Shown piece by piece: positions 1 to 18,899 of a stretch of 20,000 nt of DNA; the first letter of the stretch is position 1, and every line of letters begins with the position of its first letter. The translations under genes were made by a program, and so were the position numbers. Under the pieces are notes generated by a model. The model was not told the DNA's origin, did not search any database, and was given only the letters and a program-made list of their open reading frames with translations. The DNA is taken from IMG/VR virus record IMGVR_UViG_3300029955_000003; one strand, 5' to 3'. The stretch comes from an uncultured virus (IMG/VR IMGVR_UViG_3300029955_000003) (taxonomy: Duplodnaviria > Heunggongvirae > Uroviricota > Caudoviricetes).

Positions 1-227
1 GGAAATTTACGATCTAACGTCTCTTTAATCTGTTTAAGATCGGTTCTTATCTCGATGATAATATCGTGATCTACTTCTAGCTTATCCACACGTACCTTTA
101 GTACAGAGATATTCGCAGCATTAGTTTGAATATCATTCTTTAAAGAGAACGCAAAGCCGGTTAATCCTACGATAGTAGTAAGAATTAATAGTATTGGTTG
201 AATGTTGTCATGAAATGCTTTTAACAT
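1..227 (-). CDS. Small membrane-anchored coiled-coil protein (possible holin/XhlA-like or virion protein), runs off the left edge
   Basis: Not in the ORF track because it is open at the edge. Hand translation from ATG at 227: MLKAFHDNIQPILLILTTIVGLTGFAFSLKNDIQTNAANISVLKVRVDKLEVDHDIIIEIRTDLKQIKETLDRKF..., with no stop. One N-terminal hydrophobic helix, then a heptad-like segment. SD GGAG at 240-237. Confidence 0.75.
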   Translation of the reverse strand, partial: MLKAFHDNIQPILLILTTIVGLTGFAFSLKNDIQTNAANISVLKVRVDKLEVDHDIIIEIRTDLKQIKETLDRKF

Positions 228-253
228 AGCAGTTTACTCCAAGTTATATAAAT

Positions 254-259
254 TATTTA
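254..259 (-). promoter_or_regulatory. Putative T4-type late promoter (TAAATA) for the minus-strand gene
   Basis: TATTTA at 254-259 reads TAAATA on the minus strand, 13 nt upstream of the SD. It lies within the inverted repeat AAGTTATA(241-248)/TATAACTT(258-265). Confidence 0.5.
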
Positions 260-308
260 TAACTTAATGGTATTATTCAATATTTTATAAGTGATATAAA
301 TTTTAAGT

Positions 309-337
309 GTTGACTTCGGATCGGGGTTATACTAAAT
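309..337 (+). promoter_or_regulatory. Putative host sigma70-type promoter of the NAD operon
   Basis: GTTGAC(309-314)-N17-CTAAAT(332-337), close to the rhizobial consensus CTTGAC-N17-CTATAT. It also contains TAAATA (333-338). Confidence 0.6.
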
Positions 338-347
338 ATGAGCATAA
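327..347. promoter_or_regulatory. NadQ-like operator (21-bp imperfect palindrome) overlapping the -10 element
   Basis: TTATACTA-AATAT-GAGCATAA, flanked by GG/CC. One mismatch to the NadQ consensus as I recall it (TTATRCTC-N5-GAGYATAA), and directly upstream of NAD genes. Confidence 0.55.
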
Positions 348-393
348 CCACACAGGAGTTGTGTAGGTTCACATACACTAAAGGAGTTTTAGT
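346..393 (+). promoter_or_regulatory. 5' leader: GGAGU-loop hairpin plus RBS AAGGAGTTTTAGT
   Basis: Stem AACC-ACACA(346-354)/TGTGT-a-GGTT(360-369) with loop GGAGT(355-359). The 13-mer at 381-393 is identical to the one upstream of nadV. Confidence 0.55.
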
Positions 394-1482
394 ATGACAA
401 AAAAGTACAACTATGTGCTATTTCACGGCAGATTGCAGTTTCCCCATAAGGGACATAAACACAACATTGAAACAGCGCTTGAATTATCCGAAGTGGTAAT
501 GATCGGTATTGGTTCACCCAATAGAGCCAGTTCCCCCCGAAATCCTCTTTATGCGGAGGAACGTATTGAAGTTCTTACTAGAATGTTTCCACAAGAGGTA
601 GCTGACGGGCGCATACATTTTCTACCAATCCCTGATATTACTTATAACGATCAGGCGTGGGTTATCAACACGCGGAAAATTATAACTAATTTTATTTTGG
701 ATCATGGAAACGCATATGGATTTCAAAATCATGGGTTGAAAGATTTCAACATTGGAATCATTGGTTATGAAAAAGATGCTTCATCTTCATACCTGAGAAT
801 GTTCCATGGGTGGGATTTGATCAGCTTGCCATCGCAGCACGGGACATTCAATTCAACGGAAATACGTGATAATTATTTTCAGCGGACTCCTATCTTTCCA
901 GAACGGGTATGCCCGGTTGAAGTTGTCGATTATATGGAAAAATTCATGTATACCGATAAGTTCAAATGGTTGTTGGGTGAAGCCGAATATTACCGGGATT
1001 ATAAGAAAAGTTGGGAACATTCCCCCTATCCTGTTATTATTCCTTGCGTAGACGCGGTATGTGTTCAAAATGGACAAATCCTTTTGGTAACAAGAGGCAA
1101 ACGTCCCGGTTTAGGCTTGCTTGCACTTCCGGGAGGGCATGTCAATCCTGACGAAACATTCCGTAATGCTATTATTAGGGAACTGCGGGAGGAAACTGAA
1201 ATAGAGGATAATAGAGGAAAAATGCCGCCAGCAGTTTTGGGAGCATATATTGAAGATAAGATGACTAGACTTTTCGATGATCCGTGGCGTTCTGAAAAAG
1301 GGCGAGTCACCACCAATGCTTATAAGTTTACTTTCCCTGATAGGGACGAACCTTTCAAAGTGCTTGGTGCAGATGATGCGGAATTTGCACAGTGGTATCC
1401 GTTGGATTCTCTGGATGCTAGAGATTTCTTCGACGACCACGCCCATATCATTAGAGAAATGACCGGCGTTAATATTGATTGA
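394..1482 (+). CDS. nadM: Bifunctional NMN adenylyltransferase / ADP-ribose pyrophosphatase (NadM-Nudix, NatV-like)
   Basis: N-terminal GRxQxxHKGH nucleotidyltransferase motif, IGS...RNPL..EER and NSTEIR. C-terminal Nudix box GGHVNPDETFRNAIIRELREET, followed by GADDA and FDDH. Strong SD. Confidence 0.93.
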   Translation: MTKKYNYVLFHGRLQFPHKGHKHNIETALELSEVVMIGIGSPNRASSPRNPLYAEERIEVLTRMFPQEVADGRIHFLPIPDITYNDQAWVINTRKIITNFILDHGNAYGFQNHGLKDFNIGIIGYEKDASSSYLRMFHGWDLISLPSQHGTFNSTEIRDNYFQRTPIFPERVCPVEVVDYMEKFMYTDKFKWLLGEAEYYRDYKKSWEHSPYPVIIPCVDAVCVQNGQILLVTRGKRPGLGLLALPGGHVNPDETFRNAIIRELREETEIEDNRGKMPPAVLGAYIEDKMTRLFDDPWRSEKGRVTTNAYKFTFPDRDEPFKVLGADDAEFAQWYPLDSLDARDFFDDHAHIIREMTGVNID

Positions 1483-1488
1483 AAACTA

Positions 1489-1520
1489 ATACTTGACTAT
1501 GAGCTTATAGTCAAGTATCC
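1489..1520. promoter_or_regulatory. 30-bp near-perfect palindrome overlapping a putative internal promoter (CTTGAC-N17-GTATCC)
   Basis: ATACTTGACTAT(1489-1500) gAGCTt ATAGTCAAGTAT(1507-1518). CTTGAC at 1492-1497. No U-tract follows. Confidence 0.55.
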
Positions 1521-1535
1521 CATTACCTAAACCCT

Positions 1536-1580
1536 GTGTAGGGGAGTCCTACACTTATAGAAAACTGAAGGAGTTTTAGT
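1536..1580 (+). promoter_or_regulatory. 5' leader: GGAGU-loop hairpin plus RBS AAGGAGTTTTAGT
   Basis: Stem GTGTAGG(1536-1542)/CCTACAC(1548-1554) with loop GGAGT(1543-1547). RBS 13-mer at 1568-1580. Confidence 0.55.
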
Positions 1581-1581
1581 T

Positions 1582-3051
1582 ATGAAACATTTTGTAAGAT
1601 TTAATCCGCGCAACCCTTGTTTAATGGCGGATGGTTATAAATTTTCACATGCCGCAGCGGGCGCTGTGCATAAGTGGGGACAATATCCCCCACACACTGA
1701 GCGGCAATTCAGCTATATCGAGGCGCGCGTCGGTTCTAAATTTAGCGAGGGCGTCTTTTTTGGTCTTCAATATTTTCTTAAAGAATATATGACCGTTCGT
1801 ATAACGAAGAAAGATGTCGAGGAAGCCGAGTATTTTTGTAAGCTTTATGGTGTTCCGTTTGATACGGAAAAGTTCATGGACATTGTGAATCGCACTGACG
1901 GATATTGGGATGTCACCATTGAGGCGATTCCCGAAGGATCGGTCGTTCCCAAATCCAATGTGCAGGTTCAAATCTATAACAATAGTCCAGAAAGTTTTTG
2001 GCAACCATCGTTCCTCGAAACGGTTTTGCAACGCGCCGTGTGGTACGGGAGTACCGTTGCGACTCTTTCGCGTGAAGCTAAAAAGGTTATCAGGCGCGGT
2101 CTGGAAATCTCGGCAGATAACTTAGATGGTTTGCCGTGGAAGCTTCATGATTTCGGTGCGCGTGGCGTTTCTTGCCATGAACAGGCGATGATCGGTGGCG
2201 CGGCGCATTTGGTTAACTTTATGGGAAGCGATACCGTTGAAGGCGTCGTGATGGCGAATTATTATTATGGTGAACAGATGGCGGCTAATACCATTGTTGC
2301 CACGGAACATTCAACTACTATTAGTTGGGGTGAGATTAGAGAACCCGATGCATTGATCAATCTTATTGATCAATTTGGCGACAAATATAAAATTATCGCC
2401 AGTGTTGCAGACAGCTTTGATTTCTTTCGCGTGGTGGAAGAATATTGGGGTGAAAGGCTGCTACAGCGAGTGAAGGATTGGGGCGGCACGATTGTAGTCC
2501 GTCCTGATAGTGGCGACGCCACGACTATTCCTGTTGAGGGCATAGATCGTCTTATGAAGAAAGTTGGACACACTTTAAACACGAAACGGTTTAGATTACT
2601 GCCTAACTATTTCAGGTTTGTTCAAGGTGATGGAATGAATTTGGAATCGGTTGAGCAATTGGATAACAATCTTATTGCGGCGGGCATCAGCACTGATAAC
2701 CTTACTCGTGGTATGGGCGGCGGTCTTCTTATGAAGGTTGATCGTGACACCATGCATTATGCGCAGAAGCCGGGACTTATTGAAATCCGCAATCCTGATG
2801 GAACCATCGAGTATCGCGAAATCCGTAAGACCCCCAAGACCGATACCGGCAAGACTTCTAAAGGCGGTCGTCTTGCCCTTATCGAAAGTTGTGGCATTGG
2901 TTCAAGCACCATCGAAACTATCAAATATGATGATTTGAATGGTCGCAGGAATTTACTTCGTCCGGTTTGGAAAACTGGCGAACTATTGATAGATTCTACC
3001 TTCGCACAAGTTAGAGAGAATGCTAAGCTTGACTATCACTACGCAGCGTAA
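1582..3051 (+). CDS. nadV: Nicotinamide phosphoribosyltransferase (NadV/Nampt family)
   Basis: Motifs DGYKxSH..QYPP, SYIEAR, FFGLQY, LHDFGARG, AHLVNFMGSDT, ATEHS, VRPDSGD, QGDG, GMGGGLL..VDRDT and K.PKTD.GK.SK.G. Confidence 0.93.
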   Translation: MKHFVRFNPRNPCLMADGYKFSHAAAGAVHKWGQYPPHTERQFSYIEARVGSKFSEGVFFGLQYFLKEYMTVRITKKDVEEAEYFCKLYGVPFDTEKFMDIVNRTDGYWDVTIEAIPEGSVVPKSNVQVQIYNNSPESFWQPSFLETVLQRAVWYGSTVATLSREAKKVIRRGLEISADNLDGLPWKLHDFGARGVSCHEQAMIGGAAHLVNFMGSDTVEGVVMANYYYGEQMAANTIVATEHSTTISWGEIREPDALINLIDQFGDKYKIIASVADSFDFFRVVEEYWGERLLQRVKDWGGTIVVRPDSGDATTIPVEGIDRLMKKVGHTLNTKRFRLLPNYFRFVQGDGMNLESVEQLDNNLIAAGISTDNLTRGMGGGLLMKVDRDTMHYAQKPGLIEIRNPDGTIEYREIRKTPKTDTGKTSKGGRLALIESCGIGSSTIETIKYDDLNGRRNLLRPVWKTGELLIDSTFAQVRENAKLDYHYAA

Positions 3052-3057
3052 TATAGT

Positions 3058-3081
3058 GGGGGCGCAAGCCCCCCCCTTATT
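3058..3081 (+). terminator. Putative intrinsic terminator after nadV
   Basis: GGGGGC-GCAA-GCCCCC (GNRA tetraloop) followed by a weak pyrimidine tail (cccttattctt). Confidence 0.65.
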
Positions 3082-3098
3082 CTTAAAAATGAGAAGTT

Positions 3099-3614
3099 AT
3101 GTATAACGATTTTTATAAACTTTCACAGTCTGAAAATTTTAATAAAATTATAAACTCGAACGGAATTTCCGAAAGTGTTATTTTTTTAAGTGATGCTGAT
3201 AACGTTGTTTATAAATTTTATAAGAATGATCCCGCCTACTCCCGGTTCGTGAACTGGTGCGTGGGCAGGGACGACCCCCATTTGCCGGTGATCGAGTGTT
3301 TGCAAGAGACAGATGATGGGTTTTCTAAGGTTAAATTAGAGAAACTTTCTCCGATCACTGAGGATGAATTTTATGATCTTGGTTTGTTTGATCTGATTAA
3401 CTATGCGTTAGATCAGGCAGAGTATGTTGATCACTTCATTCTCCCCACGGATGAATATCTTCAAGAAATTGTTATGCGCTATCCGGGGTTTGGGAGAACG
3501 ATTGTTTCTCTTTATACGGCACTCGTAGATAAACATAATAAGATTGATTTACATTACGAGAACATTATGATGCGTAGTGGTATTCCTGTTATTATTGATC
3601 CGTTGTTACCATGA
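3099..3614 (+). CDS. Minimal Ser/Thr protein kinase-like protein, T7 gp0.7 kinase-domain family
   Basis: VYK (beta3 Lys), DPAY..FVNWC, HLPVI, LEKL, catalytic loop DLHYENIM and metal-binding IIDP. The Gly-rich loop looks degenerate (NGISESVIF). Confidence 0.75.
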   Translation: MYNDFYKLSQSENFNKIINSNGISESVIFLSDADNVVYKFYKNDPAYSRFVNWCVGRDDPHLPVIECLQETDDGFSKVKLEKLSPITEDEFYDLGLFDLINYALDQAEYVDHFILPTDEYLQEIVMRYPGFGRTIVSLYTALVDKHNKIDLHYENIMMRSGIPVIIDPLLP

Positions 3615-4186
3615 TTAAGGTCAAGAATGAGATAAAAACACGGTTAGCCAACAACGAGATACTTGATAAAAATCTTATTATTGGTTATTTTAAATTCTTT
3701 AACTACGAGTACTTGTCAGAAGGTGCGAGTAGTGTTGTATTCGAACACCCTACTAAACCTTATATTTTAAAAGTGTTTCAAAATGATGATGCATATTTTA
3801 ACTATTTTGAGTTTTGTTTGTGTAATCAGAATAACCCTTTTATCCCGAAAGTTAAACCGGTTTTATTACATGGTCCCAATTCCGGTATTGTGAAAATTGA
3901 AAAACTATTTCCTATTGACAAACGGGACCGTTTTGCATTAAAAGCAATGCAGTGGGTAGAAGCAGAGTTATATCTTGGTGATAAAATAGGATTACCGAAA
4001 TTTAATGAAGATTTATACCATAAAGAAATTGGTGAGTGGATTAAGAACAATCCAGCGTTTGTCAGTTTAGCCAAACACTTACGATCACGCACGAAAGGAA
4101 CCGGGCTACATTTTGATTTTCACGAAAGTAATATTATGAAGCGTGGGGATCAATTAGTTATTACTGATGCACTAATTCAAGGTTAA
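3611..4186 (+). CDS. Ser/Thr protein kinase-like protein, T7 gp0.7 kinase-domain family
   Basis: LSEGASSVVFEHP..PYILKV (compare T7 LGxGHFSAAYSHP...VIKV), DDAY..YFEFC, FIPKV, IEKL, FDFHESNIM and VITDA. ATGA overlap with the upstream kinase. Confidence 0.8.
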   Translation: MIKVKNEIKTRLANNEILDKNLIIGYFKFFNYEYLSEGASSVVFEHPTKPYILKVFQNDDAYFNYFEFCLCNQNNPFIPKVKPVLLHGPNSGIVKIEKLFPIDKRDRFALKAMQWVEAELYLGDKIGLPKFNEDLYHKEIGEWIKNNPAFVSLAKHLRSRTKGTGLHFDFHESNIMKRGDQLVITDALIQG

Positions 4187-4267
4187 AAGGTGAGTTATAT
4201 AAGAGTATCTTTAATACGAGTCTTAGGATCATTAAAGATTATGAGGATGAATATTTACAGGAAAATT

Positions 4268-4726
4268 ATGATGGAGACGAGTTGGATCAAGAGTGAAGGG
4301 GCTATAGTATATGATCCCCCGCGAGACACTATGAAACGGAACACCAAAAACTGGTGCATCGTTCAGACTTCGCGTGGTATTACCGGTCTTTATCGCTGGT
4401 TCCTCGACCGTAATTGGTGGGAAGTGGAAAAAAACAATGTTAAACGTGGGTACTTTGAACCCGCGTTCCCCGGTCATATTTCCATTATCCGGGGCGAACA
4501 GTTGCGGCAAAATGCCGAAGATTGGAATAAAATCTTTAAGAAAAAAGTAGCGTTTGAGTATGCAAATGACATTCGTATGACTACTCAAGACGAAAAATTT
4601 TACTATATTCCAGTAAGGTTCCCTGAATATAATGAAATCAGGAAGCACTTTGGCTTGTTGACGCACGATCCGCGCAACGGCAAGGAGTTTACAGGACATA
4701 TCACGATAGCAAAGACGTATGGATAA
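4268..4726 (+). CDS. 2H phosphoesterase superfamily protein
   Basis: Two Hx(S/T) motifs in hydrophobic context, PGHISII and TGHITIA, about 73 aa apart. Start moved from GTG 4190 to ATG 4268/4271 because of the CAGGA SD at 4258-4262. Confidence 0.72.
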   Translation: MMETSWIKSEGAIVYDPPRDTMKRNTKNWCIVQTSRGITGLYRWFLDRNWWEVEKNNVKRGYFEPAFPGHISIIRGEQLRQNAEDWNKIFKKKVAFEYANDIRMTTQDEKFYYIPVRFPEYNEIRKHFGLLTHDPRNGKEFTGHITIAKTYG

Positions 4727-16987: not shown

Positions 16988-18096
16988 TGGATAATATTCT
17001 AATCGTTGGTGCTGGCAAAATCGGCACCATCCTATACACTTATATGGGATACTTGAATATTAATGTAGAATTTGCTGATATTAATCCCGCAAATTCTAGC
17101 TATTATACAACATCAGTGAATTTAAAAAATTCTCTTCAAATAAAAGAAATTTTAATTGAAGAGAACATTTCTTGTTTGATTAATACCAGTAGTGTTAATG
17201 ATGTTAAATCAATATTGGCTGTCATAGAATTATGTAATGCTCTGAAAATAAATTATATAGATATCCATTATAATGAGCAAGTGGAAGAAGCGGTTGCATT
17301 ATGGAATTTGGATATTAATGTGATATTAGGAACCGGGTTAGCCCCTGGAATAGTGAATCTTATAGCTGCTGATTTGGTTAATAACACAAAGTTAGAATAT
17401 CCCCATTTGCTAGAAGCTCATGTCGGTAGCTTATCTAGAGATACCGACAATGCCATTTTGTTGGTTCCTACTTATGCAGTAGACGCACTGTGTGATGAAT
17501 ACAACAGTAAAGCTAAGTTTGTGAATAATGGACAGGTGACAGCATATGAACCATTTAAAAATGGTATGAAAAAAGACATAATAATTAATGATTTAAATTA
17601 TGAGGCGTTTGTGACTGCCGGTGGGTTTTCAACATTCTTTGATACTTTCAAAGATAAGATACCTAATATAATTTATCGTAGCTTAAAAAAACCCGGACAT
17701 TATGGTATTGTCTCAGAAAGATACGTCAGTAGGTCGTTTGTGGCACTTCCACCTAAAGACGCAGACGATATCTTAGTACAGTTCGACATGGGAAATTTCT
17801 ATACTGATGTTGAAAACACCACTATAGAAAATGTAGATGATATTGTTATTATGTACGTCACTCTCGGCGGTCTAACAACCAATGGTATTTTTAGTACAGA
17901 ATATACAAAATTAGTTTTTACGCGATCTGATTTCAAGTATGGTTCCGCTACAGATAATTTGATATCATTAGGAATAGTTACGGCGCTTCGGGCTATATTA
18001 TTACAAGCGGTCAACAACAAGGGTATTGTAAAATATGAAGACATCCCTTATAATATACTAACATCTACTTTTGAAACATTTAATGTGAGGTTATAA
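16987..18096 (+). CDS. Saccharopine dehydrogenase / L-lysine 6-dehydrogenase family NAD(P)-dependent oxidoreductase
   Basis: Rossmann motif [36 protein letters not shown] and YRSLKKPGH (compare YxTIRYPGH). Confidence 0.8.
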
Positions 18097-18899
18097 TGGG
18101 AAAATATCATGAAGTCTTGGGAATTGCTGAAGGTGCTACCGAGGCAGAAATTAATAGTGCGTTTAAAAAATTAGCAAAAAAATTTCACCCCGATGTTAAT
18201 AAGGATGATCCAGAAGCAGAAAATAAATTCAAAGAAATAAATGAAGCTGCTGATGGGTTAAAAAAAGGAAAGAGTGGACCCGAAGATCAAAGACCACAAG
18301 GAAATCCCGGTGGTTTTGGTTGGGGCGGCACCCCATGGTCGGGCTTCCACGATGCGTTTCGGGATTTTGGAAGAAACCCACATTCACCATTTCAACAAAC
18401 ACAGGCACAGGTTCATGAGTCGGTGGCGGTTCCGTTAGAAACCTTTATCAAAGGTGGTGTTTATAAATTTGTAGTCAATGTAGGGATGCAAAAATTTGAA
18501 CATGATATAACATTAGAGCCGGATACTGCTGTAGGTACTCTAGTGGTAATATCTTTACCGGAAATAAAAAATGTCGTGTTTAATATCCACCTATTACCAA
18601 TATCCACTAATAACATAGAGATACATGGTATTAATCTGGTGATTCCGACGCGCATAAATGTATTTGATGCATTACTCGGTGTTGATAAAATTATAACATT
18701 ACCTGATGATAAACAAATTAATATGACTGTACCATGTGGTGTTCAACCCAACACGCTATTAAGAGTGGTTGGAAAAGGGTTGCATCAAAATAATAAACGC
18801 GGGGACGTATTTATTAAGATAGAATTAGAAGTTCCTAGGATAAATGAGGAACAACGAGATAAAATAAAAGAATTTTTGGAAGAAACTGGGATTAATTAA
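18096..18899 (+). CDS. dnaJ: DnaJ-family co-chaperone, class B (no Zn finger)
   Basis: J-domain YHEVLGI...[11 protein letters not shown]...FKEINEA, a G/F-rich linker, and a C-terminal DALLG...VP.G.QP...LRVVGKG...RGD. Confidence 0.92.

Follow-up and report, generated by a model that had tools for sequence, protein, structure and literature searches.

A putative NadQ-type operator at the nadM-nadV salvage operon of an uncultivated giant phage

The nadM-nadV locus and its NadQ-type box

We analysed a 20,000-nucleotide stretch of DNA from an uncultured virus (the window, which is the first 20 kb, reversed, of the 51,442-bp IMG/VR record IMGVR_UViG_3300029955_000003) that opens with a two-gene operon predicted to salvage nicotinamide adenine dinucleotide (NAD). 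The promoter of this operon holds a 21-bp imperfect palindrome resembling the operators of NadQ (COG4111), whose regulon is found in alpha-, beta- and some gamma-proteobacteria (Leyn 2016, PMC5343134). The features of the locus are collected in Table 1. The first gene, nadM-Nudix, encodes a predicted bifunctional nicotinamide mononucleotide (NMN) adenylyltransferase (NMNAT) and Nudix hydrolase that scores 278.7 bits against NCBIfam NF003786, under the 397-bit equivalog cut-off, and carries the alignment-invariant residues H18 and H21 and, in its Nudix region, G247, G248, E263, L264, E266 and E267. No relative found shares more than 53% identity with this NadM. The second gene, nadV, encodes a predicted nicotinamide phosphoribosyltransferase (Nampt) and passes the cut-off of NCBIfam NF006629 (477.1 bits against 405). 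GC across the operon is 0.39-0.48, slightly higher than in its surroundings. An earlier reading of the window from its letters alone (the sequence-only reading) had taken the two genes for a Nampt plus NMNAT/Nudix pair of the NARP2 type on a phage contig, and the domain, PHROG and NCBIfam matches, together with the T4-type phage genes alongside, bear this out. That the operon restores NAD+ against NAD+-depleting defence is what we infer from both genes being homologous to enzymes of the NARP2 type.

Table 1. Features of the nadM-nadV locus, and corresponding boxes at bacterial loci
Feature	Coordinates	Strand	Basis or note
-35-like hexamer TTGACT of the nadM-nadV promoter	310..315	+	TTGAC(T/A)-N17-TAnnnT promoters elsewhere in this phage
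Putative NadQ-type operator, 21-bp imperfect palindrome	327..347 (325-349 with GG/CC)	.	NadQ consensus match 17/18
nadM leader hairpin 1, loop GGAGT	350..364	+	minimum-energy fold
nadM leader hairpin 2, loop with Shine-Dalgarno GGAG	377..393	+	minimum-energy fold; covariation
nadM-Nudix, bifunctional NMN adenylyltransferase / Nudix hydrolase, 362 aa	394..1482	+	Pfam CTP_transf_like + NUDIX; PHROG 395, 3.7e-58
Perfect 12-bp inverted repeat between nadM and nadV, 6-nt spacer	arms 1489-1500, 1507-1518	.	unique in contig
nadV leader hairpin 1, loop GGAGT	1536..1554	+	minimum-energy fold
nadV leader hairpin 2, loop with Shine-Dalgarno GGAG	1563..1581	+	minimum-energy fold; nadV-leader counts
nadV, nicotinamide phosphoribosyltransferase (Nampt), 489 aa	1582..3051	+	Pfam NAMPT_N + NAPRTase; PHROG 448, 5e-127
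Intrinsic terminator closing the operon	3058..3075	+	G+C stem then T-rich tail
Single or tandem NadQ boxes before bacterial nadM-nadV	L249 2881-2930, L235 2921-2941, L416 971-1021, L429 714-734, L431 2428-2448, L434 2421-2441	.	Roseibium and related metagenome contigs

The box reads TTATACTAAATATGAGCATAA and, with its flanking GG and CC, ggTTATACTAAATATGAGCATAAcc; its arms, TTATACTA and GAGCATAA, can pair at 6 of 8 positions, and at 8 of 10 when the GG/CC extension is included. When compared with the published NadQ consensus, ttATRCTCannntGAGYATaa (Leyn 2016, PMC5343134), the box agrees at 17 of the 18 specified positions. None of 200 dinucleotide shuffles of the window yields a site with one mismatch or fewer, the analytic expectation of such sites is 0.0012 per 51,442-bp contig on both strands, and the next-best site on the contig has 4 mismatches. 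The core of the box is CT-N7-AG, as in NadQ boxes, and the GT-N7-AC core shared by NrtR boxes (Rodionov 2008, PMC2330246) was not found in it. The sequence-only reading had described both the palindrome and its GG/CC extension, which we confirmed on the sequence and which lie far beyond chance, and the NadQ site that it gave is essentially the published one. Together, the sequence match, the CT-N7-AG core, the position at a NAD-gene promoter and the like-placed bacterial boxes before nadM-nadV make the identification of 327-347 as a predicted NadQ-type operator well supported.

The box begins 12 nt after the TTGACT hexamer and 67 nt before the nadM ATG, and because it fills the gap between that hexamer and hairpin 1, both the -10 region and the transcript start must lie under it. 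A TATACT within it (328-333) lies just 12 nt from TTGACT, too close to be a standard -10 element. The earlier proposal that the box covers the -10 element and the start site therefore stands for every plausible -10 register (332-339) and for the likely start point, but not for TATACT itself.

Similar boxes at bacterial NAD genes and in a second phage

We examined 249 nadM loci, comprising 80 from genomes, the 80 best viral contig loci, 80 from metagenomes and 9 from cultured phages. Sites with 3 mismatches or fewer numbered 11 in the 56,973 nt that lie up to 250 nt upstream of nadM, as against 2 in the other 1,339,860 nt. These 11 sites fall in 10 loci, three of them in Roseibium genomes and the other seven on metagenome contigs, among which one pair is near-identical; nadV follows nadM in 9 of the 10, the tenth contig (L445) being too short to tell. 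In most of these loci the box begins 66-126 nt before the ATG, and the common order is box, hairpin 1, hairpin 2, ATG, with offsets of -67/-44/-17 in the window, -67/-42/-14 in L431 and -68/-42/-14 in L235. We then placed the window NadM in a tree of 115 rows (all relatives of at least 41% identity, every box locus, the cultured phages and one in four of the remaining rows, with truncated rows dropped), where it falls in a clade (SH-aLRT, an approximate likelihood-ratio branch test, 99) with Methylosinus sp. Sm6, two viral contigs and five metagenome contigs. Presence of the box requires at least 4 independent changes on this tree.

As to the regulator, Roseibium sediminicola encodes a single NrtR_WHD protein, which matches PDB 7q91, 'NADQ transcription factor', over its full length (3.7e-78), and its genome contains three perfect-core boxes, one directly before nadA, the classic target of NadQ, and two before nadM-nadV. 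The 2016 NadQ regulon comprises nadA, nadC, nadB, nadE, nadQ, nadD and proA (Leyn 2016 supplement, PMC5343134). Because that reconstruction lists de novo and downstream genes only, the predicted boxes before bacterial nadM-nadV widen the NadQ regulon to the salvage pair, unless Minazzato 2022 already reports it. Methylosinus sp. Sm6 likewise encodes NadQ (1.7e-81 to 7q91) and has two tandem boxes before nadA, and since the NadM clade of the window includes this genus, with both NadQ and boxes, an alphaproteobacterial host with NadQ is at most plausible. The situation in Roseibium litorale is more mixed: a 258-aa NrtR-like gene (L288 2024-2800, minus strand; best PDB match 3gz5, 6.5e-32) lies divergent from nadM, a box agreeing with the NadQ consensus at 15 of 18 positions lies between the two (L288 2811-2831), and a NadQ-like protein is encoded elsewhere in the genome. 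In some alphaproteobacteria, similar sites may be bound by both NrtR and NadQ, jointly or in competition.

Scans of viral contigs returned 101 stretches with a perfect core and at least 114 with the position-8 variant, whose flanks covered 2.5 kb for 80 of each type and about 300 nt on each side for the other 55. Among the listed viral stretches and their flanks, a NAD gene is present only in L037 (nadA) and L159 (nadV). The former belongs to G005, a complete phage record of 305,833 bp (terminal repeats, CheckV 100%, GC 0.44), in which nadA, encoding quinolinate synthase, has a box 12 nt ahead of its ATG that agrees with the consensus at 18 of 18 positions (L037 2501-2521, equal to G005:C1:210474-210494) and is the only one in the genome (8.6e-5 expected). 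G005 also carries a nadM homologue without a box, has no nadV, and encodes a terminase unrelated to that of the window phage; a match to NrtR_WHD / PF21906 occurs nowhere in the complete genome. On these sequence matches a phage NAD gene stands behind a NadQ box in G005 too, independently of the window phage, and as the G005 genome is complete yet without a NadQ/NrtR-type protein, the regulator there must come from the host. The same wiring in two unrelated giant phages, at nadM-nadV in one and at nadA in the other, suggests a repeated solution and not an accident.

Other candidates were set aside. The L159 site lies 1.2 kb after nadV and precedes open reading frames (ORFs) without a NAD link, and a near-identical site in L180 lies inside an ORF, and we regard both as chance occurrences. 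Atu_ph07 and Phosso, considered as structural relatives that might carry the box, have no nadV and only 3-mismatch sites, at background level.

Leader hairpins and the surrounding contig

Both genes of the operon are preceded by a pair of predicted hairpins. Hairpins of this kind, with GGAG(T) in a loop of 5 nt, recur directly before nadM or nadV at most of these loci among L226-L471, and frequently two of them stand in tandem some 30 nt from each other. A hairpin with a stem of at least 5 bp is present in 135 of 226 nadM leaders, and 48 of the 226 have two, the one that corresponds to hairpin 1 of the window lying about 45 nt ahead of the nadM start; before nadV a hairpin was observed at 117 of 167 loci compared to 23 of 698 control ORFs of the same loci. 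Covariation was assessed in 122 leaders, made up of 120 distinct nadM leaders picked only by the nearest GGAG before the start, plus the nadM and nadV leaders of the window. Across this set 89.3% of the cells of the 6-bp helix are paired compared to 52.6% in shuffles (0 of 500 reach the observed value), slid registers reach at most 49.5%, and 280 cells carry double changes. No Rfam family, NAD+ riboswitches included, matched the leaders of the window and 8 related loci at E values up to 1. Collectively, the hairpins look like an element that accompanies nadM and nadV in bacteria and phages and controls the translation of these genes specifically, and the folds and covariation suggest that in both leaders of the window they probably act as a second, translational layer of control.

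Two further elements lie within or at the end of the operon. The inverted repeat between the genes contains TTGACT; with no T-run after it on the plus strand it does not qualify as a standard terminator, and it could serve for processing or as a further operator. At 3029-3057, in the last nadV codons just before the terminator stem, lies TTGACT-17-TATAGT (10/12), the best match to a sigma-70 promoter in this region, from which the gene that follows (3099-3614) may be transcribed. The NAD operon is directly followed by a protein-kinase-like ORF at 3611-4186 (PHROG 15752, 3.4e-13), and an ORF at 4190-4726 has a weak 2H phosphoesterase match, under the Pfam cut-off. These last two ORFs are possibly further host-takeover or counter-defence genes.

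The contig as a whole (CheckV completeness 14%, GC 38%) encodes a T4-type terminase, tail sheath, gp15, baseplate, UvsW and UvsX, along with ThyX, ribonucleotide reductase, ribosomal protein S21, Cpn10 and DnaJ. Its terminase and sheath are closest, at 35-41% identity, to those of the giant myoviruses PA5oct, 121Q/PBECO4, Sinorhizobium phage Phosso and Agrobacterium phage Atu_ph07; the contig is therefore a piece of a giant phage, and its source, judged by these genes, is an uncultivated giant T4-like phage. The S21, Cpn10 co-chaperonin and DnaJ-like proteins are phage-encoded (L386 13686-14233, equal to G000:C1:33585-34132; window 18096-18899). In a large protein collection the phage S21 has one relative only beyond itself (65% identity), from which no pointer to the host was gained. 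Megablast of positions 1-3300 against 50,697 phage records gave no match, and a single-protein scan of viral contigs found no close relatives.

The sequencing runs that contain this DNA are labelled peat metagenome, and no RNA runs are listed among them. Positions 327-347 are identical in the contigs of four DNA runs, and the same protein occurs on contigs of up to 131 kb. The whole 3.3 kb shows just 8 differences, a diversity too low for selection on the box to be read from the runs.

Proposed control, rival readings and known systems

We consider it probable, from the match, its placement and the parallel loci, that 327-347 is a working NadQ-type operator of the phage nadM-nadV salvage operon and is read by the NadQ of the host. 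In the mechanism that we propose, a NadQ dimer supplied by the host, probably an alphaproteobacterium, would sit on the box and block initiation by RNA polymerase, and the operon would be expressed only once NadQ was released by its effector or titrated away. The likely benefit would be feedback and cost control of a pathway that consumes phosphoribosyl pyrophosphate (PRPP) and over-produces NAD+. NARP2 over-produces NAD+ even without a defence system and draws on PRPP, and the KVP40 operon is toxic in E. coli (bioRxiv 10.1101/2024.02.11.579819), which gives feedback control a rationale; that the box is an alarm dedicated to defences that deplete NAD+ appears less likely.

The only effector of NadQ that we found named is ATP: Minazzato et al. 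2022 (J Struct Biol) call NadQ 'ATP-responsive' in their title. The sequence-only reading had envisaged derepression when NAD+ falls and, with it, a defence-inducible counter-defence switch; the former is unsupported and the response might even run in the opposite direction, and the latter is speculation. ATP reportedly suppresses the binding of NadQ to DNA, and if ATP does release NadQ, an energy-draining NADase attack would tighten repression, not relieve it.

Several observations weigh against a NadQ-read operator. The sole mismatch of the box falls on a conserved C, at position 8 (A for C). The promoter is weak, with a weak -10 in every register and no call by a simple sigma-70 scan at 310-339; a rhizobial sigma-70 consensus would fit better (GTTGAC at 309-314, 17 nt, CTAAAT at 332-337). 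The sequence-only reading had suggested seeking the site upstream of nadM/nadV in related phages; the 8 nearest NadM relatives have no box (best upstream matches with 5-9 mismatches), the 80 best viral nadM loci are without one in the 250 nt ahead of the gene, and the nine cultured alphaproteobacterial phages with nadM (L002-L010) have no site with 4 mismatches or fewer near that gene. Both nadM and nadV stand outside the 2016 NadQ regulon and are placed under NrtR (PMC5343134 supplement), and the NrtR-like gene beside a NadQ-like box in R. litorale implies that the box type alone may not name the regulator. Furthermore, the contig represents only about 14% of the genome, which leaves room for a phage-encoded regulator. 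The use of a host-encoded NadQ, as the earlier proposal had it, is plausible, given that no NrtR_WHD protein is found in the 51-kb contig or in G005.

The simplest rival, a chance palindrome in an A+T-rich promoter, is highly improbable. The genome is 38% GC, 0.45 sites per window are expected at 3 mismatches with positions 9 and 13 free, and the L180 and L159 look-alikes show that such sites do occur in or beside unrelated genes of viral contigs, but the shuffles and the analytic expectation at one mismatch speak against chance here, as does a placement exactly before NAD genes at the distance of bacterial NadQ targets. Alternatively, the box could be a relic imported with a nadM-nadV cassette from a bacterium and without a role in the phage. 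This would agree with the mostly alphaproteobacterial NadM clade, with a box-hairpin-hairpin layout equal to that of the bacterial loci and with the slightly raised GC of the operon, and an A+T-rich site would erode only slowly by drift in a genome of 38% GC. However, a neutral 21-mer is not expected to keep 17 of 18 positions over the distance implied by a NadM at most 53% identical to its relatives, and the lack of the box in the nearest relatives, together with the independent changes on the tree, argues that it was not simply inherited with a Roseibium-type cassette; we therefore give a relic little credence.

The remaining rivals concern what reads the box. Were it an ADP-ribose-responsive NrtR-type repressor instead of NadQ, the operon would be truly defence-inducible, since NADase defence effectors release ADP-ribose. 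NrtR and NadQ share their DNA-binding domain, nadM-nadV is a classic NrtR target, ADP-ribose suppresses the binding of NrtR to DNA (PMC2330246), and the R. litorale arrangement places a NadQ-like box beside an NrtR-like gene. Nevertheless, the window has the CT-N7-AG core and not that of NrtR, its fit to the NadQ consensus is close, no PF21906 match occurs in the contig, and R. sediminicola, where this box type is also present, has NadQ alone, making an NrtR-type reader quite unlikely. We are similarly doubtful of an operator serving a NadQ/NrtR-like regulator of the phage itself, encoded in the other ~86% of its genome. The low completeness, the contigs of up to 131 kb with the same protein and the frequency with which giant phages carry their own regulators would allow for one, but no NrtR_WHD / PF21906 protein and no helix-turn-helix protein were found among the 61 ORFs of the contig, and the complete phage G005 has the same box type without such a protein. 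Finally, the box might act as a NadQ sponge, such that replication titrates the scarce host NadQ and turns on both the phage nadM-nadV and the host nadABC, with the hairpins as a second gate. Although we think this unlikely, it would mean that each replicated genome adds one high-affinity site, that switch-on is timed by copy number, and that NAD+ is raised by the salvage and de novo routes without a phage-encoded regulator.

A search for literature joining NadQ with phage found nothing relevant, and a phage operator read by host NadQ is best set beside the systems that it resembles. With the NadQ regulon (PMC5343134; PDB 7q91-7q94) it shares the 21-bp palindrome (17/18), the CT-N7-AG core and the position at a NAD-gene promoter, whereas its target is the salvage pair nadM-nadV in place of the nadA/B/C/D/E that the 2016 supplement lists, and the operator stands on a phage genome as one site, not a tandem pair, with no regulator gene seen nearby. 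NrtR operators precede nadM-nadV in Synechocystis sp. PCC 6803 and prs-nadV in Shewanella (Rodionov 2008, PMC2330246), so that the NrtR system has in common with the proposed one a homologous winged-helix repressor domain, a 21-bp palindrome and the same target operon; unlike the phage box, however, NrtR sites have the GT-N7-AC core, the NrtR effector is ADP-ribose, and nrtR usually adjoins its targets.

The operon itself is like NARP2 of Vibrio phage KVP40 in joining Nampt and a bifunctional NMNAT/Nudix protein in one phage operon (bioRxiv 10.1101/2024.02.11.579819). How NARP2 transcription is controlled goes undescribed in that text (0 occurrences of the word 'promoter'), whereas the phage operon here carries a putative host-type repressor site. 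Silent on expression control, the NARP2 text calls the pathway costly and even toxic, and the box gives an easily tested model in which the phage would delegate the on/off decision to the metabolic sensor of its host. Recent work has shown that phages overcome Thoeris, DSR, SIR2-HerA and similar defences by NAD+ reconstitution. Host transcription-factor boxes are also present before other phage auxiliary metabolic genes, such as the Pho boxes before cyanophage pstS, and in both cases a phage metabolic gene would be wired to a nutrient-sensing regulator of the host; the locus described here differs from the cyanophage case in its regulator and its pathway, and in that its predicted targets are also counter-defence genes.

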